From an uncultured delta proteobacterium (GTDB taxonomy: Bacteria > Desulfobacterota > Binatia > UBA9968), in contig CAWFJP010000018.1 of the NCBI GenBank assembly GCA_963816145.1, positions 96,001-160,000 on the forward strand: a stretch of DNA of 64,000 bases. The letters run 5' to 3'. Position 1 is the stretch's first letter. Every line of letters starts with the position of its first letter. Both the position numbers and the translations under genes were made by a program. Positions 4,194 to 38,040 of the stretch are shown one piece after another. Under the pieces are notes generated by a model. That model ran no database searches, was not told the origin of the DNA, and saw only the letters and a list, made by a program, of their open reading frames with translations.

Positions 4194-4380
4194 CGGCTTA
4201 CACTGAGTGAAACGGTTGAACATGTTTTTCTTAATATCGCCTCATGCCTGTGTGGTGCGCGCGGCATCGTTTTTCTTAGAGGTCGCTTTTTCGCTTCGAA
4301 ACGCTATCTCTAAGCTCTTAAACAACGCCTTTTAAGCCATCTTATATTGGCAAATCAAGAACTTGCTTGGTCCGACCCGG
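4194..4380 (+). repeat. ~190-bp repeat family A (non-coding RAYT-end-like element)
   Basis: Similar to 6362-6558; ends CTCTAAGCTC...CTTGGTCCGACCCGG with about the same spacing as the RAYT 3' end. Confidence 0.8.
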
Positions 4381-4582
4381 CGTCGGTCGCCTTTTGTCAC
4401 CCTTTTGGCTAGCGATAACTCTGGCCGGTCGGCTAAGCCGATTCTTACTGTGGCGAAAGCTCAGCGTCAAACTGAAGTCGATGATCGAAACGTCGCATTC
4501 AGAATGATCAAGATTAAAAGGCCTGGCCTCGGATCTTTCCAGATCTTTACCGGTCCGACGCGGAAGTTCAGCTTGAATCGTC

Positions 4583-4611
4583 TTGACCACAAGCTGTCTT
4601 GTATATACGAT
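4583..4611 (+). promoter_or_regulatory. sigma70 promoter of brnTA, leaderless, with inverted-repeat operator
   Basis: TTGACC-17bp-TACGAT, ATG 6 nt downstream; ACAAG..CTTGT in the spacer. Confidence 0.6.
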
Positions 4612-4617
4612 TTGCCA

Positions 4618-4893
4618 ATGTTGTATCGGTGCGACGAACGCAAGCGGAGAGCCAATCTCAAGGCTCACAAGCTCGACTTTCGCGATGCACCCGAGGTGTT
4701 TGACGGCCTCACAGTTACTTACGAGGACGATCGATTCGACTATGGCGAGCAGCGCTACGTGACGTTAGGGTTTCTCAAAGGGATTGTCGTTTCCATCGTC
4801 CATACCGAAACCGAAAAACAAATTCGTATTATCTCTTTTAGAAAGGCGACACGAAATGAAGAAGCGTACCTCTTCAAAAGTCTCCAAAACTGA
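4618..4893 (+). CDS. brnT: BrnT family toxin
   Basis: DERKRRANLKAHKLDF...YGEQRYVTLG...IRIISFRKAT. Confidence 0.88.
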   Translation: MLYRCDERKRRANLKAHKLDFRDAPEVFDGLTVTYEDDRFDYGEQRYVTLGFLKGIVVSIVHTETEKQIRIISFRKATRNEEAYLFKSLQN

Positions 4894-5134
4894 TTGGCAA
4901 GGACTACGGGCAATGAAGACATCTCAAATCAAGCTATCGAAAGAGCATCCGGAACTTGATCTCAAGCATGTCGCGCGGGCGATTGTTCGCAAGGGCCTGC
5001 AACCTATCCCGCCAAAGACGTCGATCGCGCTGCGGGTCGACGCCGACGTTGTCGAGTGGTTCAAATCCCAGGGACCCGGCTATCAAACGCGCATGAATGC
5101 TGTACTGCGAGCTTTTAAAGAAGCCTCAATTTAG
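4856..5134 (+). CDS. brnA: BrnA family antitoxin
   Basis: SKTDW...LRVDADVVEWFKSQGPGYQTRMNAVLR; overlaps toxin. Confidence 0.88.
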   Translation: MKKRTSSKVSKTDWQGLRAMKTSQIKLSKEHPELDLKHVARAIVRKGLQPIPPKTSIALRVDADVVEWFKSQGPGYQTRMNAVLRAFKEASI

Positions 5135-5362
5135 CAGAATCGCTCGCCCGCCTGGTTGCCGCCTTCGGCGAATCGACCCGAGTCGATACGAGTCGCCAAC
5201 CGCCGACGGATTATACGATATCGCGTGAATTTTGTTCGCGCCGCGGGCAATGCGTGCCGCCGCTAAAGTTTTGAGCGAGCTGTCCTCGCTGACAAGGACC
5301 TGACAGCCGCTCGCTTTTTCAACCAGGCTAAGGACCGTGCGGGTTACTTCTCGAAGTGTCAT
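5126..5362 (-). pseudogene. Truncated hypothetical protein (MTLREVTR...)
   Basis: Starts at the edge of repeat family B; a similar start (MPIRE) follows the copy at 11566. Confidence 0.4.
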
Positions 5363-5541
5363 GGAGTGATACCATAGCATAAACGGATCAAGCACAAACC
5401 GCCCGCCGTCGGTATGAGACCACGTCATAAGATCGGGTACTGGCGCGAGCAGGCTCAGTGGAAATCGAATCGGCGAGGCAGGTTCATCGGTCGACTGATA
5501 CTTGAGGAGGGATAGTCAATAAAGCAAGGCCAGGCCCAATC
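5360..5541 (+). repeat. ~180-bp repeat family B (ends TAGTCAATAAAGCAAGGCCAGGCC)
   Basis: Copies at 11566-11749 and partial 10256-10360. Confidence 0.85.
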
Positions 5542-5645
5542 ACGTAGCCTCCGTAGCCTGGCCCCCGAGCCTTAATCTGACAAGAGCGTTGCAATAAATC
5601 ATTGGGGTAGAATTTCGCCATGCCTATTGGCTATAATCAACCGCT

Positions 5646-5885
5646 ATGGAGGCTTCGATGGAAGTTTACCCGGGGATAACGATGAACTCGGAAGTGCGCT
5701 TTGGCAAGCCTTGTATCAAAGGCACAAGAATCGATGTTGCAACGGTACTCGGTAGATTTGCCGCAGGCGACAAGATCGAAGACATCCAAGAAGATTATCG
5801 GCTCACGCGAGACCAAGTCATGTCTGCGCTCGCTTATGCTACGCACGTTGCCGAGCATCTACCTCCCGCCGTCAAATCCGCATGA
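5646..5885 (+). CDS. DUF433 family antitoxin
   Basis: VRFGKPCIKGTRIDV...EDYRLTRDQVMSALAYA. Confidence 0.88.
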   Translation: MEASMEVYPGITMNSEVRFGKPCIKGTRIDVATVLGRFAAGDKIEDIQEDYRLTRDQVMSALAYATHVAEHLPPAVKSA

Positions 5886-6241
5886 TCATCTTGCTGGATG
5901 AAAACTTCCCACTGCGATTCTATACCAGGCTGCAAAAAGAAGGTCTCGCGGTACAGCACATCCTGCTAACCGATCGCGGCATCGATGACAAGCAGATCAC
6001 CGCTCGGCTGATGCAGGAAGAGATGCTTTTCCTGACACAAGACGAAGACTTTGTCGAAGCTGCGCCCGACTGTAAGGCCAGCATCATCTGGTCTCGTGTG
6101 TCGCAATCGATGGCGATAGACCAACGGGTTGAAATCTGGCTTAACGCCGTGAGGCAGTTCTTTGCCAAACCGTGGAATGAAAACTTCTTTGAGTTATACG
6201 ACGACGGACAACTTCATCCCGTTGAGGTTGTAAAGAGATAG
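5882..6241 (+). CDS. DUF5615 PIN-like toxin
   Basis: LLDENFP...DDKQI...LTQDEDF; ATGA overlap with DUF433. Confidence 0.85.
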   Translation: MIILLDENFPLRFYTRLQKEGLAVQHILLTDRGIDDKQITARLMQEEMLFLTQDEDFVEAAPDCKASIIWSRVSQSMAIDQRVEIWLNAVRQFFAKPWNENFFELYDDGQLHPVEVVKR

Positions 6242-6361: not shown

Positions 6362-6584
6362 ACGGCTAGAACGGAGTGAAACGGTTGAACTTGTTTTATC
6401 TCACTGTTGCCTCATGCCTCACGCCTAATTGGTGCACGTGGCAGCGGTTTTCTTAGAGATCGCTTTTTCGCTTCGAAAAGCTGTCTCTAAGCTCTTAAAC
6501 AAAGCCTTTTAAGCCAGCTTATATTGGCAAATCAAGAACTTGCCTCGGTCCGACCCGGCATCGTCTACTCCGGCATCGTCTACT
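6362..6584 (+). repeat. Repeat family A copy 2 plus 15-bp tandem duplication
   Basis: Similar to 4194-4380; CCGGCATCGTCTACT x2 at 6555-6584. Confidence 0.8.
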
Positions 6585-6595: not shown

Positions 6596-7615
6596 TCAGA
6601 TTTTGTAAAACCTCTTGGCATTTTCTCCCAGGATCAGCTTCTTGTGTTCATCGCTGATATCATGTCGGTGCTCGATTTCATCGATCTCGTGGCGAGCATC
6701 CTCCATCGGAATTTCATGAGGGAAATCGGACGCGAACATACACGGTTGTGGACCGATAAGATTCACGACACTGGACAGAGCCCTCTCATTTCCCTCACAG
6801 CCGACATAAAAATTACCACTGGTAAAGTAGTCAAGAACTGGCCTTTGGCAGTGAAGCTCGCCGTACTCGTGTTCCCTTTCGAGCCTGTCAACGATCATGG
6901 GAATCCAGCCGGTTCCTCCCTCCATAAACCCCACCCTCAAATTAGGAAACGCATCCCATACCCCATCCTGAATCATCCCTGTCATGGCAATCGCCAGAGG
7001 CATAGGCATCCCTAACGCTCGGGTTCCCGGAAATTTGGTGAAGGTGTTAAATCCGAGATCGCTGTAACTGCCGCCGTGGATGCCAACGGCGCAGTCCAAT
7101 TTTTGCGCTTCCTCGTAAATTGGCCAGAACTCCTTTGCGCTAAGGTGTCTCTTTAGGCCGTTGGAAGGAATGTAAGCGCCAACAAATCCAAGGTCATTTA
7201 CCGCCCGCCGAAGCTCTGCAACGGCACTGGGCGGGTCCTGCATTGGAATCAGAGCCATCGCCTTCAATCGTGGACTTTTTCTCAGATACGTTTCATGAAC
7301 GTAGTCGTTCCACGCTCTGGCGTATGCAACCGCCCATTCCGGAATTACCACGTGACCGTAAGCGAGCGCTGTGGTCGTGTAAAGAACAGTAGACTCTAAT
7401 CCGGTCTTGTCCAAATACTCCAGCCATTGCTCGGGACCGACGTTGAAATCAAATGTGCCTTTTTTTCGCAGCTGCGGAGTATGAAACTCATCTAGGGAAG
7501 GTAGTAATCTTCGCTCTGCGACGGTATCGGCGCTCCTCCAAGGTTCTTCCAGATACCCGATTAAGTCCGCTGCTCTCTCCATAATATGACCGTCAGCATC
7601 AACATAGTGTGGCAT
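6596..7615 (-). CDS. Amidohydrolase_2 family protein
   Basis: DADGH, GIHGG, MEGGTGW, FASDFPH, LGENAKRFY. Confidence 0.9.
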   Translation of the reverse strand: MPHYVDADGHIMERAADLIGYLEEPWRSADTVAERRLLPSLDEFHTPQLRKKGTFDFNVGPEQWLEYLDKTGLESTVLYTTTALAYGHVVIPEWAVAYARAWNDYVHETYLRKSPRLKAMALIPMQDPPSAVAELRRAVNDLGFVGAYIPSNGLKRHLSAKEFWPIYEEAQKLDCAVGIHGGSYSDLGFNTFTKFPGTRALGMPMPLAIAMTGMIQDGVWDAFPNLRVGFMEGGTGWIPMIVDRLEREHEYGELHCQRPVLDYFTSGNFYVGCEGNERALSSVVNLIGPQPCMFASDFPHEIPMEDARHEIDEIEHRHDISDEHKKLILGENAKRFYKI

Positions 7616-7715: not shown

Positions 7716-8684
7716 TTACTTCATCGCTTCGTCAACATAACGATTAGTAAATGTCTGTTTGGGGTCCAACTCCTTGGCCTTCGGGCTATCGAGAAATTTT
7801 ATCCCGTTGGCCATCGCCTTCTCGATCGTCAGTAAAGACTCTGGGAAATAGGGTTGAATATATTCCAAGGTAGCCTGAAGGGTCGTCTCGTCTTGAACGC
7901 GGAGGTAGCGGCGCAGAGCTTTTTTACTGACTTGGGCGTCTGTCTTGGCCAAGCGCAACCCCTCGCCCATCGCCCGCAGAAAATTCACCGCCACGTTATG
8001 GTTGCGCGGAATTTTGAGCCAGGATTCCCGCGCCGCCACCGTGGCGTTAGGGTAAAGCCCATACTCGCTGTCGGCTGGTCGAAATAAGGCTTGAAATCCG
8101 GCTTGTTTGGTTTTTAGGCTAAATGGATATCCGAGCATTGCGGCATCGACTGCGCCGTTCGTGAGCGCCGCGAACGATTCAGCGTTACCGCCCGCCTGGA
8201 TGAACAAGACATCGGCTGGTTTCATGCCGCGAGAATCGAGCATCGCAACTGCGGCGAAATAAGTCGATGCGCCAATGCGGCTAACGGCGACCTTTTTCCC
8301 CTTCAAATCGTTGATCGACTTGATCTCGGGCTTGGCCATGCCGTTGATGGTGAGCACTTGCAAGTAACTACCGATGACGGTGAGATCGCTGCCGGCTAGC
8401 CGGCTGGAGACAATTCCCCCGCCGCCGGTCAGACCGATGGAAAATTCTCCAGCCATCATCGCCGAAACGATCAACGGCGTGCCGCCAAAAAACACCGGCA
8501 CGACATCTAAGCCTTGCTTCTGAAAAAGCTTTTCGTCGATCGCAATAAAGAACGGTAGGGTCGCCGCCGTGATCGGTGTGTAGCCGACGGTGAGCTTGAT
8601 GAGATCCGGTTGAGCCGCGTGCGCACGAGCACTGAACACGCAAAGCGTCACTAGGGCGGCGAATTTTAAGACTCGTTTCATCAT
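7716..8684 (-). CDS. ABC transporter substrate-binding protein (NMT1/SsuA-like)
   Basis: Signal peptide; IKSINDLKGKKVAVSRIGAST; GAVDAA. Confidence 0.85.
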   Translation of the reverse strand: MMKRVLKFAALVTLCVFSARAHAAQPDLIKLTVGYTPITAATLPFFIAIDEKLFQKQGLDVVPVFFGGTPLIVSAMMAGEFSIGLTGGGGIVSSRLAGSDLTVIGSYLQVLTINGMAKPEIKSINDLKGKKVAVSRIGASTYFAAVAMLDSRGMKPADVLFIQAGGNAESFAALTNGAVDAAMLGYPFSLKTKQAGFQALFRPADSEYGLYPNATVAARESWLKIPRNHNVAVNFLRAMGEGLRLAKTDAQVSKKALRRYLRVQDETTLQATLEYIQPYFPESLLTIEKAMANGIKFLDSPKAKELDPKQTFTNRYVDEAMK

Positions 8685-8961
8685 TCTCTCCCCAGCTACA
8701 CTCAATAGGTGTTGAACCACGTTGGGTCAATTTTTCTATTGCCGCGCACGCCCCCGCGACTCCACGCCAGCGTTACTTCAGCGGTTCGTCAACAAACCGT
8801 TTTTACCTTTATTATAGAGTCTGACTTGGATGCAACTGTTTTGCGCGCACAGAGAGAGGACGGAAGGATCAAGGAACAGAGAAAATCAAATCCACCCGAC
8901 ACGAGGATTGGAGATCCCCAGCACCGGTAACCGACGCCCCATCGATTCGGGTCGGACCAAG

Positions 8962-9523
8962 CTATGTCGCGGCATCTTCAACGGTTTCGTCCCAAGCAAG
9001 AGCGTTTTCCGAGCTTAGAGCCGCCTTTTCACCTACGAACTTGCCCGCGTAAGCTGCCGCCGGTTCGCACAGAACGTAACTTCCTTGCACTTGGGTCACA
9101 TCGCGATGTGCCGTTTTGAAACCAAGCTGATTCCGGACGTTCTCGACAAACGATAGACTGCCCACCGCGATCGATTCCGACCACCGCCGTTGACGAGCCG
9201 CCAAGCCGTTCTCGATCCCTCGCTCGACCCACTCACGGTGTGCTCTTTGAAAGTCCTGCAGATCCGAGAATCCACTCAGTTCGCTCAAGCTTCGCAAGTC
9301 GATGATTGCGTAACGCTTCGGCGGCTTTTGGATCTCAGCAAAACCGCTCTCCTTCCACTTCTCAGGGTGACTCACTACCCCGGCACGAACCATGTTCAAG
9401 TCGATGTAAACTAAGCAACGATTGAGATGTTGGTCGGCTTCGACAGCGGTAGCATGGTAGCGGTCCTCCCAGAATGGCCCATGGCGTTTTTTGCGCTCAT
9501 TGTACTCTTGTGCCGTGCGGCCG
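8962..9523 (-). mobile_element. RAYT C-terminal remnant (second copy)
   Basis: Highly similar to 2444-3005; 5' half replaced by the vapBC promoter region. Confidence 0.85.
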
Positions 9524-9527
9524 GTGA

Positions 9528-9556
9528 TTGCACACCAATGTGCAGTAATGTACAAT
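9528..9556 (+). promoter_or_regulatory. sigma70 promoter with palindromic operator
   Basis: TTGCAC-17bp-TACAAT; TGCACA-ccaa-TGTGCA at 9529-9544. Confidence 0.65.
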
Positions 9557-9580
9557 CCGGCTGATGGAGGGCGAACGTTT

Positions 9581-9811
9581 ATGATAAGTCTATCGTTTAC
9601 TGAGTTTCGAAGGAGAGCGTCAGAAATTTTGACTCTCGTCGAAAAGGGTGAAACGATTCGTGTCGTTCGCCACGGCAAGACAGTGGCGAAAATCATTCCG
9701 GCTGACACCGAAGAGAAAATTCCGGCATGGAAGCGACCCGGTTTGAGACTAACCCGTCCGGGCGCATCGCTCAGCAAGGCGATTTTGCAGGAAAGGCGAA
9801 AGTCACGTTGA
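9581..9811 (+). CDS. Phd/YefM antitoxin
   Basis: SFTEFRRRASEILTLVEKGETIRVVRHGKTVAKIIP; GGAGG RBS. Confidence 0.88.
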   Translation: MISLSFTEFRRRASEILTLVEKGETIRVVRHGKTVAKIIPADTEEKIPAWKRPGLRLTRPGASLSKAILQERRKSR

Positions 9812-10227
9812 ACGTTTTCTTCGATTCATCGGCCCTGGCTAAACGATACATTGAAGAGAAAGGAAGCGATCAAATTCAAGCGATCCTCTCTTCTGCTTCA
9901 ACTTTAGCCGTCTCGGTGATCTGCGTTCCAGAAATCGTCTCGGCTTTATGCCGCCGTCGGCGCGAACGCAAACTGTCAATTGAAGAGTACCGAAATGCCA
10001 GGGCATCGGTACTTTCGGACATCGACGACGCTACGGTCATCGGCCTTACTGAGGAAGTGATCGCTCAGGCGGTGGCGCTGCTTGAGCAGTTCTCCCTCGG
10101 TAGTGCGGATGCCTTACATGTCGCCTGCGCCTCGGCGTGGTCGACAGACCTGTTCGTTTCTGCCGACGACCGTCAGTGTACAGCCGCTAGAGCGCACGGT
10201 CTCCGAGTCGAAGCCATAAGGGTATAG
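9808..10227 (+). CDS. vapC: VapC PIN-domain toxin
   Basis: FFDSSALAKRY...DALHVACA...FVSADDRQ; TTGA overlap. Confidence 0.88.
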   Translation: MNVFFDSSALAKRYIEEKGSDQIQAILSSASTLAVSVICVPEIVSALCRRRRERKLSIEEYRNARASVLSDIDDATVIGLTEEVIAQAVALLEQFSLGSADALHVACASAWSTDLFVSADDRQCTAARAHGLRVEAIRV

Positions 10228-10255
10228 CAAATTTATACCGGCGACGAGGTCGCTA

Positions 10256-10360
10256 ACTGGCGGAAGCAGGCTCAGCGGAAAACGAACCGGCCAAGCAGAT
10301 TCATAGGTCGACTAATACTTGAGGATGGATAGTCAATAAAGCAAGGCCAGGCCACAATCA
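10256..10360 (+). repeat. Repeat family B partial copy
   Basis: Matches the 3' half of 5360-5541. Confidence 0.8.
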
Positions 10361-10477
10361 TTTCCGAAGCCCTCTTGGTTTGAGCGCTTACGAGCCTTCC
10401 CGGCCCGGAACCTTTGTCCCAGTCGATCCCCTGCCCCGGATTGTAAATGCACGCCATTTCTTCGTATACTTCGAATT

Positions 10478-10669
10478 ATGAAAAATGAATTGGACGCCCA
10501 AATAGTCAGTCTTAAAGCACAACTTGCCGTCCTGGAGGCACAAATCCGGCGGCACGAGAGCAAAGCCGATTTTGCTGACCTCTACGGCCTGTTGCGTGGT
10601 GAAGCCGAAAGCAGCGAGAAGGAGATTGATTCGGTCCGATATTGTTTGCCCAAGGATGGCGCCGATTGA
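10478..10669 (+). CDS. Putative antitoxin (short coiled-coil protein)
   Basis: Overlaps PIN gene; TTGTAA-18bp-TATACT promoter 7 nt upstream of ATG. Confidence 0.7.
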   Translation: MKNELDAQIVSLKAQLAVLEAQIRRHESKADFADLYGLLRGEAESSEKEIDSVRYCLPKDGAD

Positions 10670-11055
10670 TACTCGTCCTCGACACTCACCCCGTCGTCTG
10701 GTTTCTCGAGGCGTCATCGCGCCTTAGTTCTAAAGCACAGCAAGTTATTTCCGATCCATCGTCACAACTTATCATTCCGTCCATCGTTCTGGCGGAAATC
10801 ACCTACCTGTATGAAAGGAAACGCATCGCTACCCCCGCCTCTGAAATTCGCACACGATTGATCGCCGCGAATAATGTCGTCGTCTATCCCCTGGACGAGC
10901 AGGTCGTGGATAAACTGCCGACCGCGCTCGACATCCACGACGGCATCATTGTCGCCACCGCACTATTGTACCGCGATGTGCTGCGCCAAGAGGTGGCGGT
11001 AGTTACGAAGGATGAGATGATTGCCGGATCTGGATTGATCAACGTAATCTGGTAA
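10666..11055 (+). CDS. vapC: VapC PIN-domain toxin
   Basis: LVLDTHPVVW...LAEI...DIHDGIIVATA...VVTKD. Confidence 0.88.
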   Translation: MILVLDTHPVVWFLEASSRLSSKAQQVISDPSSQLIIPSIVLAEITYLYERKRIATPASEIRTRLIAANNVVVYPLDEQVVDKLPTALDIHDGIIVATALLYRDVLRQEVAVVTKDEMIAGSGLINVIW

Positions 11056-11172
11056 GCAGATTTACAACTCTCCACGTCGTCGTCGATGGTGCAAGGACAT
11101 CGTAGTAGACTTGCCCCGCATCTCCACATTTATTTCCAGCAGGCCGGAGAAAAACCGCGAAAAACGCACAAC

Positions 11173-11412
11173 TCATGCCTGACCCCGTAGCTGCTTCCAG
11201 CGGTATTTTGCCATCACCGACTCGTACGAGACCGTCGGCACTTTGCCGGCTTTGTAAGCCGACCACCGTTTGCGCGCCTCCTCCGCCCACACCCGGTCGA
11301 TCTCAGGATCCGGTTTATCGTGGTCAGAAACGATCGTCTCCAGCAAGCGCAGCTTTTCAACGTCCGACAGCTTACGAATCTCTTCGGTTATGTCATCAAC
11401 ATTTTTCGCCAT
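11173..11412 (-). CDS. Addiction module antitoxin component (TIGR02574-like), toxin partner absent
   Basis: LSDVEKLRL...DPEIDRVWAEEARKRWSAYKAGK. Confidence 0.8.
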   Translation of the reverse strand: MAKNVDDITEEIRKLSDVEKLRLLETIVSDHDKPDPEIDRVWAEEARKRWSAYKAGKVPTVSYESVMAKYRWKQLRGQA

Positions 11413-11565
11413 TACTATTCCCCCCTCGGATCACCTCATGACAATAACTATCACATGGCAACGTTTCGCTCATGAGGCGCCAAATATTTTTCCCCGGCGT
11501 CGACATACTCGAATCATAACCCAGTTAGTTAGCCTTGGAAACCGCCTTCGACCTTCTCGAATTGG

Positions 11566-11749
11566 CATGGAGTGATACCATACCACAAACCGATCGAGCG
11601 CAAACCGCCCGACATCGGTACGAGACTACGTGAAAAGATCGGGTACTGGAGGAAGCAGGCTCAGCGGAAATCGAATCGGCCAAGCAGTTTCATCGGTCGA
11701 CTAATACTTGAGGATGGATAGTCAATAAAACATGGCCAGGCCCCAATCA
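11566..11749 (+). repeat. Repeat family B copy
   Basis: Aligns along its length with 5360-5541. Confidence 0.85.
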
Positions 11750-11977
11750 TGAATCCTGTTCTCCCCGCGCGCAATCCGCGACGCCGGGACTGTTTCGTTA
11801 CTTAAACTAGCCTGCCCTCGCTTTTGTTCGATTTAACAGAAATGAGCGCGCAGAACTTTGAGAACGAGGATGAAACGCTCGACCACTCATGCTTCGACGC
11901 CGCAGGCATAAGACTGTCAGTCCAGGGCACGGATCGAAGATAGTCGAGATGTAAAAGTCAGACCCTGAAAACAGGAT

Positions 11978-12199
11978 CTAGTTATTGTCGCCATTGAGAT
12001 ATTCATTCCAGTTGATCTTGGTTCGTTCACGCTCGCTTTTCTGCCACTCCGCCTTCGCTTCCGGAGTCATCGCCGCGACCCGGGCCGTCTCTTGGGTCAT
12101 CGCTTCGTCGTATTCGGCGTTGAGCCGGCTCACGGTGGCGCAACTCGACCCAAATAGGCCGCCGAGGAGAACGATCGCCAAAGCTCCGCTGTTCTTCAT
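11978..12199 (-). CDS. Small putative lipoprotein
   Basis: Hydrophobic leader ending FGSSC. Confidence 0.5.
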   Translation of the reverse strand: MKNSGALAIVLLGGLFGSSCATVSRLNAEYDEAMTQETARVAAMTPEAKAEWQKSERERTKINWNEYLNGDNN

Positions 12200-26490: not shown

Positions 26491-26500
26491 TTTCCATCTC

Positions 26501-27390: not shown

Positions 27391-27395
27391 ACGAC

Positions 27396-29720: not shown

Positions 29721-30149
29721 TTACCTGAGCGCTTTCCTCAAGATGCCGACCGCGTTGTCCGCGTCCATCGCGCTGTCGAAAGCCACGTAACTTACGGAGC
29801 GTCGCCCAAGCGCCGCCGCCGAAAGACCACGCAAATTGATCCCGGCGTCGGCGATGGCTTTGGTCATTTTCGCGCCAAGTCCCGCTTTGTCGGGGCCTTC
29901 AACCCGCACCGAATGGAGGCTATCGGTCGTGGCGAAGCCTGTCCCTTGGGCCGCGCTTTTCTGTTTTGCGCCTTTGATTGGGGTGACGAAAACGACCCCT
30001 GTGCCGGGTTTATCGGCGGCGCGGCGCGCGATTAGAAACTCAAGATTTGCGCCGGCATCACTCAAGGATTGTAACTTCTCGGCCAACCCTCCCGGACGAT
30101 CGGCGATTTCGCCTGCCCAAACGTCGACTTTCTTTACCGTATACGCCAT
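29721..30149 (-). CDS. ACT-domain (amino-acid-binding) protein
   Basis: Two ACT repeats DRPGGLA / DKAGLGA; AAGGAGG RBS. Confidence 0.85.
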   Translation of the reverse strand: MAYTVKKVDVWAGEIADRPGGLAEKLQSLSDAGANLEFLIARRAADKPGTGVVFVTPIKGAKQKSAAQGTGFATTDSLHSVRVEGPDKAGLGAKMTKAIADAGINLRGLSAAALGRRSVSYVAFDSAMDADNAVGILRKALR

Positions 30150-30238
30150 GGTCATTCCTCCTTACTGTTTGGAACTTAAGACGTAAATGGGGTGGTAATA
30201 CATTCGCGCGCCGGTCGTCAAGCGCAATGCTATCGCAT

Positions 30239-30560
30239 TCGGGTCGGACCCGCCTAAGTTTCGCAAGGCTAGCGTTCCAATGGTTCCAGTCGTTCCACAG
30301 GTTCCAGCGGTTGGGGTTCCTAGGATCGGTTCGAAGGCTCAACGACGATTCCGCAAGGCCACCGTTCCAAGTGTTCGAGACCTTCGATACGGTCTTTGCG
30401 ACCTACTCAGGGCGAACGGAATTTTTTAATTGGGGTCCGTTCAAGTCCTTACTCGATCAAGGTCGTCGGGGCCGTTCCAATGGTTCCAGCCGTTTCAATA
30501 GTTCCAATCCTTCCAGGGGTTCCAGCGGTTAGAACTCATGGGACATTGACAGCGTTCAAG
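30239..30560 (+). repeat. RAYT-end motif plus GTTCCA tract
   Basis: 30362-30509 identical by eye to 33746-33893; 30272-30368 similar to 35927-36022. Confidence 0.9.
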
Positions 30561-30594
30561 CCAATGTCTTCACTTCGATCATGCGCGGCGATGT

Positions 30595-31969
30595 TTAGTC
30601 CTGTCCCGCCGCTTGTCGTGCCTTTACCTGTGGTCCCCACTTTCGCACGGCGCCCTTCGAAAGCAGCGCCTCAAGCTCTCGACCGGCAGTGGCCCTCGAC
30701 GCTCCAGTTGCCCGTCGATACTCGCTGTTATTGATTCGCGCATGACTCTTCAAGTATTGAACGGCCTGCTTCTGTCGGTCGTTAAGCTCAAAACGACCTA
30801 ACAGATCCGCCGTCAACCAATCGCGCCACAACGTCGTCACGAAGAATCCCTGTCGCGACTCAAAATCGGGTTCGGGTAATCCGCCTTCGCGGCAAAGCTC
30901 GATCATGGTCTGGGTGCCCGATCCCACTCGCTCGATGTAGCGCGTTAAGTATAACGATTCGGCAACCAAAGGGTTGTAAGGAATTGAGGCGTGATCGTGC
31001 GCAGCGCCTCCAAGGTGAGCGAGCCGGGAAGCCTGCCGGGATTCCAGACCTCTAAGCGATCAGCGAACAGGCGCACCTCGACAGAACCATTGCTGTAAAA
31101 GTCACGATGGGCAATCGCGTTGAGGATCGCCTCACTGACGGCGTCGGGCGTAAGCTCGTAGCTGGCCGGCGCGATATTGCTTTGGCCGAGCGCCGATGGA
31201 GCGGTTGATCTTCGCGAGCACGAAATCGCGATCTTGATCCGCCGTTCGAAGAGATCGCCGCCGTAAACTTGCAGGGAGGCATGGGACGGCGGAACTCGGT
31301 GCCATGGCAGTGAATGCATTTGACTTCGGCGGTGCGCTGGAAGCGCTGCGGATGGGTACCGATCAACAGCATCGCCGCATTGGTCGGCTTGGCGCGATCA
31401 AGCGAATTGCGATGCTGAGTAAAGCCTTGGTTTCCGTGTTGGGTTTCAGCGGAAAGCCGCGCTCGCGGCGGGCGGTTTGCAAAAACCAGTCGACGTCGCT
31501 TCCGAGAAAGATTGCGCCAGAGTCGCGCAGTCGCACGTCGAGATGTCGAACGGCGGCACGCGCAGCGCGCCCATATCATCGAGCTTGATCCACCAGACTG
31601 GCATAGACTTCGGCGGTCAGAGCGATGGCATCTTCGACGCGGCGGCGAACCTGTTGACCTCTGGCTTTGCTCACCGTGGCGCATATTCGCGGCGCGGTTC
31701 GGGGTGTCCTCGCTGCACAGACATAGATCAGTCGATCTTGATGTAACGAATCGCGTGATCGTAATCAGGTTCGGTGGACGACATCCCGTTGGTCTCGACG
31801 GATTCATTCCAAGCAGTCCGAGATAGACATCGCGCGCTCGACCTCTTTCAAATACACTTCGTAAGCGCGCCGGTCTTTGGCGAGCAGGTCCCGAACAGAA
31901 ACCCTCGGTGATGAATCGCTGCAACACTGCGTGGACAACTCAACGAGGATATCGATATCCTGGCGCATC
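30595..31969 (-). pseudogene. ATP-binding RecG-C/HATPase_c_4 + HTH protein (probable DUF4062 N-terminus), multiply frameshifted
   Basis: EAILNAIAHRDF, DRLEVWNPGRLP, YIERVGSGT, LNDRQ..INNSEYR. Confidence 0.75.
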
Positions 31970-32252
31970 AGGCGAACTCTGTCTGAACTGCTGTAAAAGT
32001 TCTTAGGCGGGATCGATCCATGTGAGTCAATCTAGCGGATGGCGGCAGCATCTTGTCGAACCGACGGCGACTTCGCTAAAGCAGCCTCGTTCTGGAAAAC
32101 CTCTAATTCTTCGCTCATGCGATGATTGCCACCACTTTCGAATGCTCTCCGCGGTGACCATTCCCGAAAAAGCCGCACTGTTCAAGAGCGCGAAGTTCCC
32201 GGTCCAGGACACCACTCCGGTTCCCATCGTTCCATGGGTTCCATCAAGCTAG

Positions 32253-32442
32253 TCAGTTAAGATCTTTGCCGTAGCGCGCGGCGCGTTCTTCGACCAAAAA
32301 GCCGATCTTGCGCTTCTTGGGCTCCGGCGGGGTCATCAACTGGCGGATGGCTTCGAACAGCGATCGAATGTGGACGTCATGGCTCTCCAATTTGCGCTCC
32401 AACGCGTCGAGCTTGCGGGCCAAATCCATATTGGACGCGATC
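32253..32442 (-). pseudogene. ORF6N-domain protein C-terminal fragment
   Basis: [43 protein letters not shown]. Confidence 0.75.
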
Positions 32443-32650
32443 GTTCCAATGGTTCCAGTCGTTCCAAAGGCTCCAGCAGTTCGGTTTCCTAGGATCGTTC
32501 AAGTGTTCAACTAGCGTTAAGCATGGCTTCGGGCGACTCGGGAGCAAAGATAAAGGCGGAAGCATGGGGCGATTCGGCTCAACGGTTCCCTTCGGCGGGC
32601 GCAGGGCCTGAGTTTATCGAGGCAACAGTTCAGACGTTTAACGATGGACT
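32442..32650 (+). repeat. GTTCCA/GTTCAA tract
   Basis: cgttccaat-ggttccagt-cgttccaaa; similar to 26310-26490. Confidence 0.85.
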
Positions 32651-32664
32651 CGGAGGGGTGTCGC

Positions 32665-32990
32665 TCATTTACCGGCGGTTAACTCGGCTTCAAGGGCCGC
32701 TCCTTGCGAAACCGGCTAACGCCGAGAATGCGGAATCCAACCAACTGTCCATGCTCGTCGACTCGCTCCATGAGCGCGTCGTGGGCGGTTTCGCGCATGA
32801 ACCCGGCGGCATCGCTGAACCGTACTTCTAAAAAGTCACCTCGGGATCGCACCAGACTTTTACTTATCGGCCATACGATTTCTCCTGCTATTCACAGTGT
32901 CCGTCAAATACGCGGTAATGACAAAAGGATCACTCGGCAAATACTTTACCACCACGCACCGAATTAAAGATATCGAGCGCGCTATTTGAA
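32665..32990 (-). pseudogene. DUF2283-like antitoxin (frameshifted) with C-terminal remnant of its partner
   Basis: VKVWCDPE.GDFLEVRFSDAAGFMRET..ERVDEHGQLVGF; upstream CVVVKY..FVITAYLTD. Confidence 0.65.
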
Positions 32991-32992
32991 AG

Positions 32993-33403
32993 TTATCGGG
33001 CCGGTATGATCGCAAAGCGACCGAGCCTGGCTGGCCGATAAACCTGAAAATCACGACGGTCGAGGGTGAAGATTCGCCGCAACCGTTCGCGCTCGGCAAC
33101 GCGAACCAAGGCGCCGTCCGCCAGATCCATCGGCAAATCGCGGTACTTGCGCATCAATTCTCTAATGCGCGGGACGTCCTCAATGCCTAACGGCAGGATC
33201 TCTATCGCGCCGGTCGCGATCATTTCCCAAAGCGCATCCTGGGCGCGCCAAGAAAAATTCAAAAGGTGCAGGGCTTCGGTGACTACGGGCCACACCGTGC
33301 CAAGCGGTTCGTCGAGCGCGGCAAAGGCGTCTCGACAACGCTCATGTTGATTGTCGTCTTGGTGGATGAGGGCGATCAACGGCCCGGCGTCGACAAGGAT
33401 CAT
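32993..33403 (-). CDS. vapC: VapC PIN-domain toxin
   Basis: LVDAGPLIAL..DDNQH..VVTEA..KYRDLPMDLADGALV..FTLDRRDF. Confidence 0.9.
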   Translation of the reverse strand: MILVDAGPLIALIHQDDNQHERCRDAFAALDEPLGTVWPVVTEALHLLNFSWRAQDALWEMIATGAIEILPLGIEDVPRIRELMRKYRDLPMDLADGALVRVAERERLRRIFTLDRRDFQVYRPARLGRFAIIPAR

Positions 33404-33666
33404 CGACGCTTGCGGGCGCGCTCGACAAGCATTTCGCGGACCTTCTTGCCCGTATCTATGGAAAGATCCCGGGGTCCGCCTTTGACACAGCCAATCAGAT
33501 GAGCCACCAGATCATACGGGCGCGTTTTCACCGCGCCCGTCCCTTCCTGTTTGGCAAGCACACCGATCGCGTCCCGGATGACTTCCGATTTGGTTTGTCG
33601 TCTTCTGCGAGCCAACCGCCCGATCAACGACTCCGTCTTTTGATCTAACCGAACGCTTAAAGGCAT
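33400..33666 (-). CDS. CopG/RHH antitoxin
   Basis: LSVRLD..LARRRRQTKSEVIRDAI..GGPRDLS; ATGA overlap. Confidence 0.85.
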   Translation of the reverse strand: MPLSVRLDQKTESLIGRLARRRRQTKSEVIRDAIGVLAKQEGTGAVKTRPYDLVAHLIGCVKGGPRDLSIDTGKKVREMLVERARKRR

Positions 33667-33745
33667 AAACGCGGCGCCCCCATGTGATACAGCAGTGTAC
33701 TACAAACCAGCTCAAGACCTCAATACAGCATTCTATGAATAGAAG

Positions 33746-33990
33746 CCGTTCCAAGTGTTCGAGACCTTCGATACGGTCTTTGCGACCTACTCAGGGCGAA
33801 CGGAATTTTTTAATTGGGGTCCGTTCAAGTCCTTACTCGATCAAGGTCGTCGGGGCCGTTCCAATGGTTCCAGCCGTTTCAATAGTTCCAATCGTTTCAG
33901 AGGTTCCAGCGGTTATCGATCAAGAAGCGCTCAAGAACAGATTCGGGAGGGTTTACCGATCGGGGTCTGTTCAAGGGTTCAAAACGGTAG
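33746..33990 (+). repeat. GTTCCA tract
   Basis: First 148 bp identical by eye to 30362-30509. Confidence 0.9.
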
Positions 33991-34226
33991 AAACTACGGC
34001 CTGACAATACGGCAATCGGTCATGACGTGAAGCCGATCAGTCGAGCGACTGGTCGATTCCCTGCTTTTCGTAATGCAATTCGTGCATCAGTCTGCTGACG
34101 TTACCTAATTCACTACCCAATGAACTAGGTACTACCTATTTCCATTTAGCGGTTCGCTGCCACTCCGCGCTTTGACCGCGGCGTAGGAATCTAACGCCTA
34201 GACGCAGGTCCGGAACCAGCACCGCT

Positions 34227-34634
34227 CTATGGTTTTTCCGTTAAAGTCTTGACGAGCGATCGAATCTCGCGAAGAAACTCCTCGCAATCTTCAAGTTGCT
34301 GGCGCACGTATGGCTCATCGAATTTTACGAATTCGATGTAGTCGCCTTCTTGCCGGTCCCGAAACAGACGGTTGTACAGATCGCCATGTTTTCGAGCGAG
34401 TCTGCCGGTTTTGATGAGGTGTTGGTTAAAACTGGCACGCACACCGCTGTGCTTCCGGAATCGACGCCCGTCCTCCAAAAGCAAAGCGCTCACCGCGTAG
34501 AAAGCAGCATAATATGCGCGGTTGATCGCGAAAGAGAAAGATTTCGCGGCAAGGTCTCTATGGGCGGCTTCCAAGCTTTCAACGGCTTTGTCCCACCAGT
34601 AGCGAATCGCTTCTGCTTTGGCGTCATTTTTCAG
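34227..34634 (-). CDS. HEPN domain protein (start uncertain)
   Basis: AINRAYYAAFYAVSALL..KHSGV..F..RQEGDY. Confidence 0.88.
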   Translation of the reverse strand: MKNDAKAEAIRYWWDKAVESLEAAHRDLAAKSFSFAINRAYYAAFYAVSALLLEDGRRFRKHSGVRASFNQHLIKTGRLARKHGDLYNRLFRDRQEGDYIEFVKFDEPYVRQQLEDCEEFLREIRSLVKTLTEKP

Positions 34635-34975
34635 AGCGAAACGCCCTCTTCTTCGATGATCTTGTGAATCGGCAGGGCGGAGGGAATGCCGTGATCCCAT
34701 GTGTCGCGGTCAACGATCAACTCGCTGAGGTTCGTTCCATGGGCAAGATTCAGATCAAGGATCATGCTCGAAATCCGATCGCGATTCCGATGACTGGCCG
34801 GCTCAGCCAGGACGATTAACAGATCCTCGTCCGATCCCTCGCTCGCCGCTCCTCGAACGATCGAACCGAAGAGCAAGATACGATCGATATTGAATTCTTT
34901 GGTGAGCCGCTCTTGGGCTGCACGAAGTGCGTCACTGACATTCTGCGGAAGCTTAAGATCGTCGAGCCTTTTCAC
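34631..34975 (-). CDS. MNT nucleotidyltransferase domain protein
   Basis: LLFGSIVRG...SDEDLLIV. Confidence 0.85.
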   Translation of the reverse strand: MKRLDDLKLPQNVSDALRAAQERLTKEFNIDRILLFGSIVRGAASEGSDEDLLIVLAEPASHRNRDRISSMILDLNLAHGTNLSELIVDRDTWDHGIPSALPIHKIIEEEGVSL

Positions 34976-35046
34976 AGATCACCCCCGGTAGAAGGCCATC
35001 ATACGCTTATTTCTACCCTCAATTAACGGTACTACGCTTTCTCCCC

Positions 35047-35235
35047 TTATATTGCCAGGCGGAGGGATGGGCTTTTCTTCGTCGACGGCCCGCGCATCTT
35101 CTTCAATTCCTGAATCGGGTCGCCATCTCGCTTCTTCCACCGGCCGCGCGCCCTCGCCCAGATCGTCAACCGCTCTTTGCCTTTGATGATTGGCGAGATG
35201 CACGAATGTGACAGAGGTTGAGCGCGTTTTGCCAT
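35047..35235 (-). CDS. Small orphan antitoxin-like protein
   Basis: WARARGRWKKRDGDPIQELKKMR resembles antitoxin C-termini; TATATT 8 nt upstream of ATG. Confidence 0.35.
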   Translation of the reverse strand: MAKRAQPLSHSCISPIIKGKERLTIWARARGRWKKRDGDPIQELKKMRGPSTKKSPSLRLAI

Positions 35236-35324
35236 GCTGAAATAATATATCAGGCGCATTGGGGTGAAAAGAGCCGACGCCGCCCGGCAAGCTCGAGAGT
35301 GGGGACTGTTCCGTCATGCCTTAT

Positions 35325-35680
35325 ACTTCCAATCGTTCCACTGCTTGCAGCGGTTAGATGTTGCTGAATCGTCCAAAGGTTCAAGGTCAAATCCGGACGG
35401 TTAGCGTTCCAACGGTTCCAGTCGTTCCATGGGTTCCAGCGGTTAGCCTTCATAAGGTCGTTCAAGGGTTCAAAAAATCTAAAGATCGGCCCGTTCAAAT
35501 CGTTATCGGATCAGGTCGTCGGGGCCGTTCCAATCGTTCCAGCCGTTTCAAAAGTTCCAATCGTTTCGATTAGGAGGGATACCGTTCCAATAGTTCCAAT
35601 GGTTCCATCGGTTCCAGTAGCTGGTTCGGATCGTTCAAAGGTTCAAAGTTCAAGAGTTCACGGACGGATTCGGACGGAAA
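35325..35680 (+). repeat. GTTCCA/GTTCAA tract (several modules)
   Basis: e.g. cgttccaat-agttccaat-ggttccatc-ggttccagt at 35583. Confidence 0.9.
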
Positions 35681-35724
35681 CTGCCACGTTGGCGCAATTT
35701 CGAATACGCGGAGACGAACGCCGG

Positions 35725-35882
35725 CTAGCGATTGCCGTAGCGCGCGGCGCGCTCTTCGACCAAAAAGCCGATCTTGCGCTTCTTGGGCTCCGGCGGGGTC
35801 ATCAATTGGCGGATGGCATCGAAGACTACCTTGAATTGCGCGTCGTATTTCTTCTCCAATGCTTCCAACTTGCGGGCAAGTC
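35725..35882 (-). pseudogene. ORF6N-domain protein C-terminal fragment (second)
   Basis: [50 protein letters not shown]. Confidence 0.8.
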
Positions 35883-35889
35883 GATCGTT

Positions 35890-36062
35890 GGAAGTTCAAA
35901 AGTTCAACGACAGATTCGGAAGGATACCGTTCCAATAGTTCCAGTCGTTCCACAGGTTCCAGCGGTTGGGCTTCCTAGGATGGTTCGAAGGCTCAACGAC
36001 GATTCCGCAAGGCCACCGTTCCGATGGTTGCTGTCGTTCCAGTGGTTCCAATCATTCCAGCA
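35890..36062 (+). repeat. GTTCAA/GTTCCA tract
   Basis: Similar to 30272-30368. Confidence 0.88.
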
Positions 36063-36126
36063 GCTGCTGCACAAGGGTTTATTGACTCAATCGCCTGTGT
36101 TGTCGAGGAGATTTGAGAATCGCCGG

Positions 36127-37491
36127 TTAGTTTTTCGCAGCGGGCGTCGCGCGCGTGGTTGTAGCGTTGACCTGCTCCGCAAACAACGGGCAATCGCGCG
36201 CGAGTTTGGTCAACTGACGCGATGCCACCACCCGATGTTCCCTGACGTAGGACTCGTGGTTGGCGTCGACATCACCGAGCCGATAGAGGTAATTGACCAT
36301 GATTCCGGCACAGCGCTTCAAGCCCTGCTGTGAAATATCCGCGAGCCAATTGATCCGTTCGAGCTGCGCGCCGTTGCCAAGGTGGAATCGTGCCACAGAG
36401 TCAGCCGGCTCCGCTTCTTGTTTTACGAAAAGTAGGTAATAGGCGCACAACGACATCAGATCGGGCTCAAGGCGAGCGCTATACTTGCGTTTGAACCATT
36501 CGTCGTCCTCCAGCCACTTGAGCGCTTCGCTCACGGCCCTTCCGGCGGCAGTCGATGCGAGCAAGTCTTTGACGGAGGCGAGCCAGGCGCCGAAGCCGGG
36601 AACCGGCGACAAGGTGGCAAACTGCCTGATGCGCGGAAACTCCTGGCCGAGCTCTCGGGCCACCTGTTTGATCAGCAAATTGCCGAACGGTATGCCGCGC
36701 AGGCCTTCTTGACAGCTGGTGATTGAATAAAACATCGCCGTGTCCGCGGCTTCCGGATCCGCTACCGGGGAATCCAGATCGAGCAGTGGTTGCACTGCCG
36801 TGCTGATACCCTTGGTGAGCGCCACCTCGATGAAAATGATCGGCTGTCCCGGCAGCGCGGGATGAAAGAAAGCGAAACAACGGCGATCGGCTTCAAGGCG
36901 CCGGCGCAAATCCGTCCAGCTGGCGATTTCATGGACGGCTTCGTAGTGAATAAGCTGTTCAAGGATGATAGCCGGTGTATGCCAGTCGATCCGCTCAAGC
37001 TTGAGAAAGCCAGGATTGAACCAGGAGCGGAATAATTGGACAAGGTCGGCGTCGATAACCCGCCACTCTGGATGCGATTTGAGCCCTCTAAGCACGCCGC
37101 GCCGGATCGCCACCAAGGTGGTTGTGCCGCCGGGCGCGATGTTGAGGCGATGAAAAAGCTCCTGTCGCGGCGGCGCGACGACGCGCTGCAATTCAAGCAG
37201 GTTTTCTCGCGTCGGCTGATCGCGGTAACAATCCGCAACGCGCAAGACCTGCTGTGGATCGGGGGAGAATTCCGCTACCAGCAAGTCGAAGAAAAGCGCC
37301 ATCCCCGCTTCGGAAAGATCGTCACATGCGGCGAGCGCCGCGCGCGCGTGCACGGCGCCGGAAACCTCGCCGCGGTCCGACATGAGGGCTTGGCAGAGTA
37401 CAATAGCTTTCCTTGCCTGGCGACTCAGACGCGCCCGTCCACTCGGATTGGCGGATACGATCAAACGTTTTAGAAATGAAGTGGCGTCCAT
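36127..37491 (-). CDS. Malonyl-CoA decarboxylase
   Basis: YEAVHEI.SW.DLRRRL..DRRCFAFFHP, FGNLLIKQV, DSVARFHLGNGA. Confidence 0.92.
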   Translation of the reverse strand: MDATSFLKRLIVSANPSGRARLSRQARKAIVLCQALMSDRGEVSGAVHARAALAACDDLSEAGMALFFDLLVAEFSPDPQQVLRVADCYRDQPTRENLLELQRVVAPPRQELFHRLNIAPGGTTTLVAIRRGVLRGLKSHPEWRVIDADLVQLFRSWFNPGFLKLERIDWHTPAIILEQLIHYEAVHEIASWTDLRRRLEADRRCFAFFHPALPGQPIIFIEVALTKGISTAVQPLLDLDSPVADPEAADTAMFYSITSCQEGLRGIPFGNLLIKQVARELGQEFPRIRQFATLSPVPGFGAWLASVKDLLASTAAGRAVSEALKWLEDDEWFKRKYSARLEPDLMSLCAYYLLFVKQEAEPADSVARFHLGNGAQLERINWLADISQQGLKRCAGIMVNYLYRLGDVDANHESYVREHRVVASRQLTKLARDCPLFAEQVNATTTRATPAAKN

Positions 37492-37864
37492 GCGGTGTCT
37501 CCTGGTCCAAGCTCTGTCTGGGATGGCGATTGGAATCGACCGGCTGTCGGGTTCATCGCGCCTGTCGCAAAAACGTCGGTCAAATTGCCGTCAAATGTGA
37601 GCCCCTGCGTCACCTTTATCGGCGGCCTCTGGCCGCTAGCGCCTTTCGGACAGGGTCGTCGCTCACCCAATGAAAGCAAAAGTCGACGATCGACCCGCCA
37701 TCAGGGAGTGTTCCAGCCGCCAACTAAAGTTTGCAAAAAAGCGCGCTCTCATTCAAACACCTGCGTAAAATATTTACCGCGGTGGGTTGATTGCTCAGCG
37801 CGACCGCCCGCGCGACAATCACGTTCAAACAGCTCGACTTTCTTCAGCCAGGTTTCGCCTTCAT

Positions 37865-38040
37865 CCGGGTCGGACCCGGCTTACTGCGAGGAATCGCAGC
37901 CTTGTCGTCTTATAAGACTGTGTTATCGGATCTTATAGCGTCATTCTCACCGGCAAAATAGCCATCAACTATCGAGATCGGAACCGATTCAGAAGAAGAC
38001 CGTTCCAATAGTTCCAGGGGTTCCATCGGTTCCAGTAGTT
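37865..38040. repeat. RAYT 3'-end remnant plus GTTCCA tract
   Basis: CCGGGTC-G-GACCCGG; minus strand FAGENDAIRSDNTV; tract 38001-38036. Confidence 0.75.

Follow-up and report, generated by a model that had tools for sequence, protein, structure and literature searches.

The stretch of DNA analyzed here is a 64-kb window (C18:96001-160000; coordinates without a contig prefix refer to this window) of the genome of an uncultured delta proteobacterium (G000), which is assembled as 7.8 Mb in 31 contigs, with contig C18 being 272 kb long. The window contains an island in which toxin-antitoxin (TA) modules and defence genes are separated by short repeats. The original prediction described an integrase-less array whose genes were captured as cassettes by a REP/RAYT-driven or repeat-driven platform, functionally analogous to an integron. 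We classify the island as a repeat-rich TA/defence island in a conserved chromosomal hotspot. Its gene content, the distribution of its repeats, the lack of intI and attC, the variable slot that it occupies, and the cassettes and repeat flanks that it shares with other loci and species were observed directly. As to its origin, we incline, with moderate confidence, to island accretion combined with repeat-mediated recombination in a 44-kb hypervariable island, of which the array would form the inner portion. According to this explanation, the segment between an aroE-like gene and lgt would have accreted TA modules, restriction-modification and other defence genes, and some ordinary genes, while its spacers would have been colonised by tandem-unit tracts (GTTCCA or GTTCAA followed by N3), decayed RAYT-like elements, and ORF6N fragments. 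We infer that homologous or slipped recombination in the short repeats duplicated and swapped cassettes and moved them between islands and also between species. Ordinary horizontal transfer would contribute, and no dedicated recombinase would be needed.

The borders of the slot are defined by core genes. The left core block ends at C18:90024, with the aroE-like gene, and the right core resumes at 38101, in synteny with two related genomes, G040 and G003. The variable slot between the blocks is 44 kb long in G000 (C18:90025-134100) and shorter in G040 (21.5 kb) and G003 (13.8 kb). In G040 and G003 the slot carries copper resistance genes (Cus efflux, P-type ATPase, multicopper oxidase) and no tracts; the same flanking core genes enclose different cargo in the relatives. 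No tracts were found near lgt in G040, G003, or G036. The GC content over 4-18 kb is 0.51-0.54, versus 0.566 for the contig. The second RelA/SpoT paralogue, at the left end of the window (Table 1), has orthologues (78-87% identity) in 3 of the 30 other genomes searched; two of these belong to the same genus, 17 more members of which lack it. The main relA gene (C18:13976-15745) is located 82 kb upstream of the paralogue, on the same contig. When the interval from the relA paralogue to lgt was compared with relatives at the nucleotide level, only the paralogue, lgt, and the sequence beyond lgt aligned, which precludes an alignment of the individual cassettes.

The right part of the island (zone 2, Table 1) is punctuated by tracts in which a unit of six conserved and three variable bases is repeated with a 9-nt period, 3-4 units per tract. 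All 17 GTTCCA(N3) tracts of this zone are on the + strand, within 24879-38034, and together they form the largest of the 115 tract clusters of the genome. Tracts or composite modules occupy 8/10 spacers of about 24.8-38.1 kb, and the observation that most cassette boundaries fall on a repeat was borne out. Three successive GTTCCA(N3) units, used as a search pattern, gave 232 matches in the genome, versus none for the reversed pattern used as control. Of the other members of the genus searched, 20 of 24 have the same pattern (a tally that takes in G005), while it is absent from all 16 genomes that represent other genera within the order. Most tracts (182/209) lie outside the three TA loci described below, with 27/209 inside. 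None of the eight other multi-tract clusters contains a TA gene; their neighbors are molybdopterin, ABC-transporter, NMT1, amidohydrolase, and similar genes, and they mostly consist of inverted pairs. Across the genome, 102 of 286 tracts are paired with a tract on the opposite strand no more than 200 nt away, while the island tracts are all single-armed. The ordinary hairpin form outside the island is seen at 45666-45760, where a typical inverted GTTC[CA]A tract pair is located just downstream of a ubiD-like gene. Among 12 PIN genes outside the window, collected in a search that was not exhaustive (one window PIN was missed), 11 have no tract within 500 bp and one does. The tracts are not TA-specific, and constitute a genus-wide intergenic repeat family.

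GTTCAA(N3) arms enclose two four-helix-bundle (PF05635) genes on another contig, C15 (C15:185444-185949 and C15:203293-203798). A search for this family revealed that 9/10 matches are enclosed by inverted tandem-unit arms, and that the seven matches away from C15 each have inverted arms of their own 7-8-nt word. Inverted arms of 3-5 tandem units of 7-9 nt are present in spacers genome-wide and absent in the island. Because GTTC[CA]A(N3) arms flank PF05635 genes while the ends of the RAYT element are a different motif, the tracts belong to a four-helix-bundle-associated repeat type and not to the RAYT element. The similarity between flanks of the four-helix-bundle cassettes and the window composites is confined to the tracts. 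The repeat modules of the window fold no better than shuffled sequences (z from -1.06 to +0.17), and an Rfam scan of the window gave no family at the gathering score.

The RAYT-like gene of the window encodes a Y1 (HUH) transposase-like protein that scores 68.6 bits with the NCBIfam REP_Tyr_transpos model (NF047646), under the cut-off of 80 but far higher than the 28 bits it reaches with the IS200 model. Its true start is probably near aa 67, because homologues align only from this position onward. The earlier claim of RAYT remnants was confirmed: in addition to the one full open reading frame (ORF; 2444-3433), there are remnants at 8968-9528, 29040-29327, and 37861-37966, the last detected as DNA similarity only. 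The gene's own inverted ends, CCGGGTCGGACC..., are distinct from the GTTCCA tracts, and inverted GGTCGGACC...GGTCCGACC ends bracket the RAYT homologue in four other genomes (G004, G032, G017, and G012). In the window copy the 3' end is degenerate and the 5' end is displaced beyond the aldolase gene. The element has 16-bp inverted ends, and its copies are decayed in the island. The end motif is not amplified: a 12-mer from it occurs nine times in the genome (seven times on C18, six of them in the window), and the counts of the 9-mers, 39 and 41, are close to what we estimate for chance. The proposal that REP/RAYT activity drives the array was therefore not upheld, since the inverted ends of the RAYT element are a different, unamplified motif and the tracts match the PF05635 arms instead. 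Other Y1_Tnp paralogues (C29:1568, C3:259092) have no flanking tracts. An IS200/IS605 assignment is contradicted by the presence of inverted ends and by the score with the IS200 model (28 bits, cut-off 55); no tnpB-like Pfam match was found near the RAYT-like gene.

The repeats of the left part of the island (zone 1, 4-13 kb) are the two ends of the RAYT-like element plus a 115-nt family, B. Family A, the 5' flank of the element, has further copies at 6363-6563 and 13164-13249, and shares 87% identity with the sequence 5' of the RAYT homologue in G004. An "empty" pair of RAYT ends is found at 6252/6547. In the cargo-interrupted element (Table 1), the order is 3' end motif (8948), RAYT 3' remnant (8968-9528), Phd/PIN, PIN, Unstab_antitox, and 5' end motifs (12791 and 13238); a RAYT 5' fragment (12868-12936) lies within it. 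Solo copies of the end motif CGGGTCGGACCCGCC are located at 27134, 30240, and 37866. Family B is a conserved intergenic module of ~115 nt, present in four copies beside TA units (5424-5544, 10256-10361, 11645-11750, and C2:890-1011), with no Rfam match.

RAYT fragments also recur elsewhere in the genus. In G017:C26 (L036:6240-7583 and 12805-13887) and G037:C50 (L038:5972-7417), a RAYT N-terminal fragment is located directly upstream of a TIR-domain gene, and this module is repeated within and between genomes. The recurrent truncation near aa 158-160 was considered as a series of independent events and rejected; the fragments are probably copies of one RAYT-fragment-plus-TIR-domain-gene module. 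The RAYT-fragment arrays in G017 and G037 contain TIR, NMT1, and HpaB genes rather than TA genes, which we counted against a cassette system.

TA cassettes are carried on attC arrays in the Vibrio superintegron. The predicted lack of a tyrosine integrase and of attC sites in the island was confirmed. No Phage_integrase match was found among 199 scanned ORFs of 3-40 kb (200 listed ORFs of at least 60 aa, less two left out, plus further ORFs); the 11 matches in the genome are all on C4, C11, C14, and C15, with none on C18, C1, or C29. A pattern-plus-fold scan for imperfect hairpins of the form RYYYAAC...GTTRRRY gave no attC in 4-38 kb, versus five distinct sites (nine strand-wise matches) on C15. 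A covariance model (R1) built from these five sites had no match at E <= 1 anywhere in the 64 kb of the window, nor at the loci on C1 and C29; on C15 it revealed 13 further sites at E <= 1 (eight at E < 0.01), all on one strand. C15 encodes two integron integrases (184022-185104 and 202185-203279; TIGR02249 scores of 468 and 466 bits, cut-off 265). The C15:175-204 kb segment (L070-L073) contains two chromosomal integrons in tandem. Typical attC hairpins come after the integrases, at least 18 of them in the orientation of intI, and DUF4258 and ParE are among the cassettes. The second intI adjoins lexA, and the first adjoins imuA/imuB-like genes; the two GTTCAA-type PF05635 copies are located at the 5' side of the two integrases. 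The island array is not a cluster of attC sites lacking an integron integrase (CALIN), and the genome has classical integrons of its own; the organism therefore does not need a substitute. We found no paper on integrons in Binatia.

The combination of repeats and cassettes recurs at other loci. Composites beyond bare tracts were found mainly at three G000 loci: the window, C1:2.4-6.3 kb (Fic, ORF6N, CopG, and DUF2442/DUF4160 genes), and C29:409-415 kb (DUF6883/DUF4926, Gp49-HTH, MqsA-like, and PIN genes, with BREX adjoining). All three are TA- or defence-rich. Isolated partial composite copies are located at C3:886.7 kb, C15:141 kb, and C14:457.7 kb. The DUF4258/MqsA cassette with its flank (26483-27321) is duplicated at C29:410487-411333, at 95% identity overall, with a near-identical core and more diverged flanking tracts. 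The 5' part of the ORF at 34979-35317 matches, at 91% identity, an unnamed ORF (C29:413714-414109) whose sequence runs into the start of the C29 PIN gene, and a mosaic breakpoint is found inside the window ORF. 3' fragments of genes (RAYT, ORF6N) adjoin repeats.

Similar arrays were found in other species. G004:C6 has five co-oriented tracts with ORF6N, ParE, zeta, and RHH/PIN genes, and a RAYT homologue ~19 kb to the left; G040:C30 has seven with RHH/PIN (93% identity) and an ORF6N fragment; and G012:C277 has eight with NERD and DUF4258/MqsA. Single tracts lie beside homologous cassettes in G003:C4, G035:C214, and G040:C24, while in G018:C13 the tracts are 1.4-2.3 kb away. The NERD gene has a tract at its 3' side also in G035 and G012. 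The RHH/PIN cassette is 90-93% identical in G003, G040, and G004, and its right boundary is constant (33722-33728) in six genomes. Overall, cassettes are 89-93% identical in G003, G040, and G004. The flanking core, by contrast, has an identity of 79-81% in G040 and G003. Tract-free copies also exist: ACT homologues (89-92%) in G003, G040, and G004 have no tract within ~2 kb, malonyl-CoA decarboxylase (MCD) copies (89-90%) in G003:C3 and G004:C5 have none, and G009 and G041 carry the RHH/PIN cassette without tracts. In a genus-wide BLAST comparison of breakpoints with repeats, homology mostly ended at gene edges, which adjoin repeats anyway, so that this result alone is not discriminating.

Variants of the island were also sought in short-read Logan contigs from three or four metagenome runs. 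In two metagenomes, X1 and X2, 30613-32095 is replaced by 857 other letters; the joint 30612->32096 has sides of 121 and 95 nt, with one breakpoint at a composite's edge and the second within the composite that follows. The second robust variant, 28352->29130, is off the repeats. Joints with sides of less than 50 nt (25039->26273, 27256->35907, 25212->35525, and those that go back) were not counted as evidence, since paralogous loci are a possible source, and neither were uncovered bins, such as 30765-32066 (X1 and X2) and 25557-26207 (X2).

Several observations weigh against accretion with repeat-mediated recombination. At 30-40 imperfect bases, the tracts would serve RecA-type recombination poorly. 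Tract density in zone 2 is far above the genome norm (8/10 spacers occupied, versus ~115 clusters in 7.8 Mb). All tracts of each array point one way (17 in the window, six at C1, and four at C29), as they do in the arrays of G004 (5), G040:C30 (7), and G012:C277 (8), while inverted pairs are common elsewhere in the genome. GTTC[CA]A tracts are present on both sides of the RHH/PIN cassette in G003, G040, and G004, and on its upstream side in G000, with different neighbors, and in this respect the cassette looks like a unit with defined ends more than like a product of chance recombination. Finally, the Logan contigs break at repeats and none bridges a composite, so that the cassette order across composites lacks independent support.

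Some of these observations could be accommodated by a dedicated, attC-independent platform, in which a putative enzyme would use the co-oriented tracts (with a GATTCGGA-type linker) as sites of recombination or insertion, and would capture and shuffle single TA and defence cassettes, in parallel with the integrons. The putative tract-specific activity would possibly be linked to the four-helix-bundle genes, two of which have arms of the GTTC[CA]A(N3) unit, or to RAYT genes. Strict co-orientation in six arrays of four species, the restriction of composite modules mainly to three TA/defence loci in G000, and the constant right boundary of RHH/PIN together with its two-sided tracts are consistent with such a platform. 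So are the NERD gene, which adjoins a tract in 3/3 genomes, and the cassette replaced between 30612 and 32096 in two metagenomes, where both breakpoints are at repeat edges. In G004, the RAYT homologue (a transposase and other genes lie between it and the array) and ORF6N are on the same side of the array and in the same relative orientation as in the window. However, no candidate enzyme is conserved beside the arrays: C29 has BREX on one side, and the C1 locus starts its contig. There is no fixed junction, with two right-junction types among four species, and no cut site or target duplication was seen. Most tracts are at metabolic genes, the ACT and MCD homologues elsewhere and the RHH/PIN cassettes of G009 and G041 are tract-free, and the robust variant 28352->29130 does not map to repeats. 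We consider a dedicated platform unlikely. The original prediction is partly supported: in its favor are the lack of integrase and attC, the repeats at boundaries, the composites at two other TA/defence loci, and the recurrence of arrays in other species, and RAYT/REP as the driver is not supported. The analogy with integrons applies to the layout and not to a demonstrated mechanism.

The position of tracts at cassette borders could also reflect regulation, if the tracts were protein-binding or insulating arrays (operators or nucleoid-protein sites) that travel with small, autonomously regulated operons. The 6 + 3 design with its 9-nt period and 3-4 units per tract is compatible with this, as is the location of tracts just outside operon promoters or stops. 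Tract orientation tracks the strand of neighboring genes, 10/11 zone 2 units being on the - strand, and sequences of this design in Geobacter metallireducens have been annotated as putative sites for global regulators (PMC2700814). On the other hand, no regulator was identified, and the tracts lie beside very different gene classes. Moreover, tracts vary at orthologous sites of close species (G040, G003, and G036 have none near lgt), a behavior more like that of mobile DNA than of conserved operators. A regulatory origin of the pattern seems improbable to us.

The explanation that fares worst is an assembly artefact, in which shared repeats would have led the assembly of a metagenome-derived genome to join cassettes from more than one locus or strain: despite 6.72% contamination, repeat copies 0.9-6.3 kb from contig ends (C1 start, C2 start, C3 start, and C10 end), alternative repeat-to-repeat joints in metagenome contigs, and composites bridged by no short-read contig, we consider it very unlikely, since contigs of four runs from separate studies bridge NERD-HepT/MNT, RAYT remnant-ACT, and MCD-flank at 98-100% identity, similar arrays are present in 10-50-contig assemblies of other species, and core blocks in synteny with relatives are present at either side of the slot on the 272-kb contig.

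The island can be compared with several known systems. Defence/TA islands in hotspots share with it the conserved flanking core, unrelated cargo in sister species, the mixture of restriction-modification, NERD, TA, and insertion sequence (IS) remnants, and the slightly lower GC content; they lack the regular repeat punctuation and a repeat-plus-cassette layout that recurs elsewhere in the genome and in further species. Sedentary chromosomal integrons and CALINs resemble it as long arrays in which small cassettes, often TA modules, mostly point the same way and every spacer contains a repeat; their cassettes, too, are common to several species in different contexts. Unlike them, the island has no intI on the contig and no attC, its repeats are non-folding, its cassettes have their own upstream regions, and true integrons coexist on C15.

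Repetitive extragenic palindromes (REP), with the related BIME and REPIN-RAYT systems, are similar in their many-copy short intergenic repeats, a Y1 HUH transposase-like gene between inverted motifs, and a plastic TA-bearing region. REP-linked plasticity around a TA module is described for E. coli folA-apaH/ccdO157 in PMC3184786, and RAYT groups in PMC5581495. The island differs in that its RAYT-like protein is below the NCBIfam cut-off, the motif flanking it is unamplified, and the abundant GTTCCA tracts do not flank the RAYT-like gene and are built of tandem units, not of a single palindrome. Also similar in design are the "predicted global regulator binding sites" (classes 1-3) of G. metallireducens, which, according to PMC2700814, consist of about four tandem 7-8-nt units in tens of copies, mostly form opposite-strand pairs between genes, and have a function given as unknown. 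GTTCCA tracts outside the island look the same as these sites, whereas those of the island have a single arm and a common orientation, are fused to further modules, and cluster at TA cassettes.

Our literature searches (TA with RAYT/REP; TA cassettes, direct repeats, and genomic islands) found no description of such arrays. If the repeats only mark a recombination-prone island, the locus is a well-documented but ordinary TA/defence pile-up in a variable chromosomal slot. If the tracts were insertion sites, they would represent a new route of gene-cassette capture that explains TA movement without integrases, and would provide a function for widespread tandem-unit hairpin repeats, perhaps also for the four-helix-bundle genes that these enclose. 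With classical integrons and tract arrays side by side, the genome is a useful test case.

The features of the window are listed in Table 1. About 12 TA modules or remnants had been predicted, and Pfam gives 10 units plus orphans, which is near that count. Two labels were not supported: the ORF at 34979-35317, previously assigned to DUF2283, has no match in Pfam (E <= 0.01) or NCBIfam (E <= 0.001), and the ORF at 25515-25781, the second presumed Phd antitoxin, matches no family. Pfam also revealed fragments of AAA_21, DUF429, and HATPase_c_4 genes. The region is not a pure TA array, as ordinary genes (aldolase, amidohydrolase, NMT1, ACT, and malonyl-CoA decarboxylase) are interspersed. Gene units of 4-13 kb are in mixed orientation, and 10/11 units of 25.5-39.1 kb are on the - strand, 25515-26197 being the sole + strand unit of zone 2.

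Table 1. Positions of genes, modules, and repeats in the window.
Feature	Position	Strand	Basis and remarks
Second RelA/SpoT (RSH) paralogue	273-2246	+	Pfam RelA_SpoT, HD_4, TGS; inside variable segment, not core
RAYT-like Y1 (HUH) transposase gene	2444-3433	-	Pfam Y1_Tnp, E=8e-13; degenerate end motif at 2432
Aldolase	3373-4161		Pfam
Family A repeat	4194-4385	+	5' flank of RAYT element, ending in GGTCCGACCCGG
BrnT/BrnA TA module	4363-5134	+	Pfam
Family B repeat	5347-5550		Between BrnT/BrnA and DUF433/DUF5615
DUF433/DUF5615 TA module	5646-6241	+	Pfam
Amidohydrolase	6596-7615		Pfam
NMT1	7716-8720		Pfam
Cargo-interrupted RAYT element	8942-13249		Strand not assigned
Phd/PIN TA module	9491-10227		Pfam
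PIN and unnamed upstream ORF	10642-11055 (PIN)		Pfam
Unstab_antitox, orphan	11173-11412		Pfam
Type I restriction-modification (hsdS, hsdM, hsdR)	17450-24638	-	Pfam
ISAs1-type IS	18438-20230		Pfam; splits type I restriction-modification system
Zone 2	24865-38042	+	17 co-oriented GTTCCA(N3) tracts, GTTCAA tracts, 91-nt module (D6), other composite modules
Unnamed 88-aa ORF (25515-25781) and PIN (25781-26197)	25515-26197 (cassette)	+	Pfam for PIN
DUF4258/MqsA-like unit	26501-27024	-	Pfam; cassette with repeat flank 26483-27321
NERD nuclease-like gene and HepT/MNT	27396-28924	-	Pfam; MNT/HepT 28276-28924
RAYT 3' remnant, divergent	29005-29327	-	With end motif CGGGTCGGACCCGCC
ACT-domain gene	29721-30155	-	Pfam; housekeeping-like, within array
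HATPase_c_4-type gene, frameshifted	30595-31927	-	Pfam
ORF6N (KilA-N/Rha-like) gene 3' fragment	32265-32429	-	Second copy 35732-35823; full gene C1:3013-3540
RHH/PIN	32993-33666	-	Pfam; cassette 32891-33728
MNT/HEPN	34227-34975	-	Pfam
Orphan small ORF	34979-35317	-	Adjoins HEPN/MNT module; no family match
Malonyl-CoA decarboxylase (MCD)	36127-37491	-	Pfam; tract-flanked here, not in relatives
lgt	38101-39133	-	Start of conserved synteny; ~60 nt right of last tract

Comparison of the window with metagenome contigs of three or four runs revealed 1-2 nt indels at 21091, 22290, 23031, 28563, 32840, 32890, and 32974; the indel at 28563, in the HepT/MNT region, is 2 nt long and was found in three runs. 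Because such indels fall inside hsdM, hsdR, and HepT, the "remnants" of these genes, and with them the frameshifts that split the restriction-modification system, may be assembly errors and not the result of decay. A segment of ~300 nt between a composite repeat and the PIN gene (32628-32959) is 83-88% identical in eight other genomes of the genus and has no Pfam match; three 1-nt indels separate the window copy from metagenome contigs, so that assembly errors may have disrupted a small gene here. Further to the right, a penicillin amidase gene extends over two frames (52985-55406), and a second, unnamed ORF overlaps an NMT1-like ORF (60559-61642). These genes, together with split genes in G040 and G003, suggest indel errors of the kind common in long-read assemblies.

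In the type I restriction-modification region, a single open frame (19136-20230) encodes both a DruA-like domain (E=8.5e-28) and the N-terminal domain of the ISAs1-type transposase, which suggests that the IS was inserted in or beside a putative Druantia-like gene inside hsdS.

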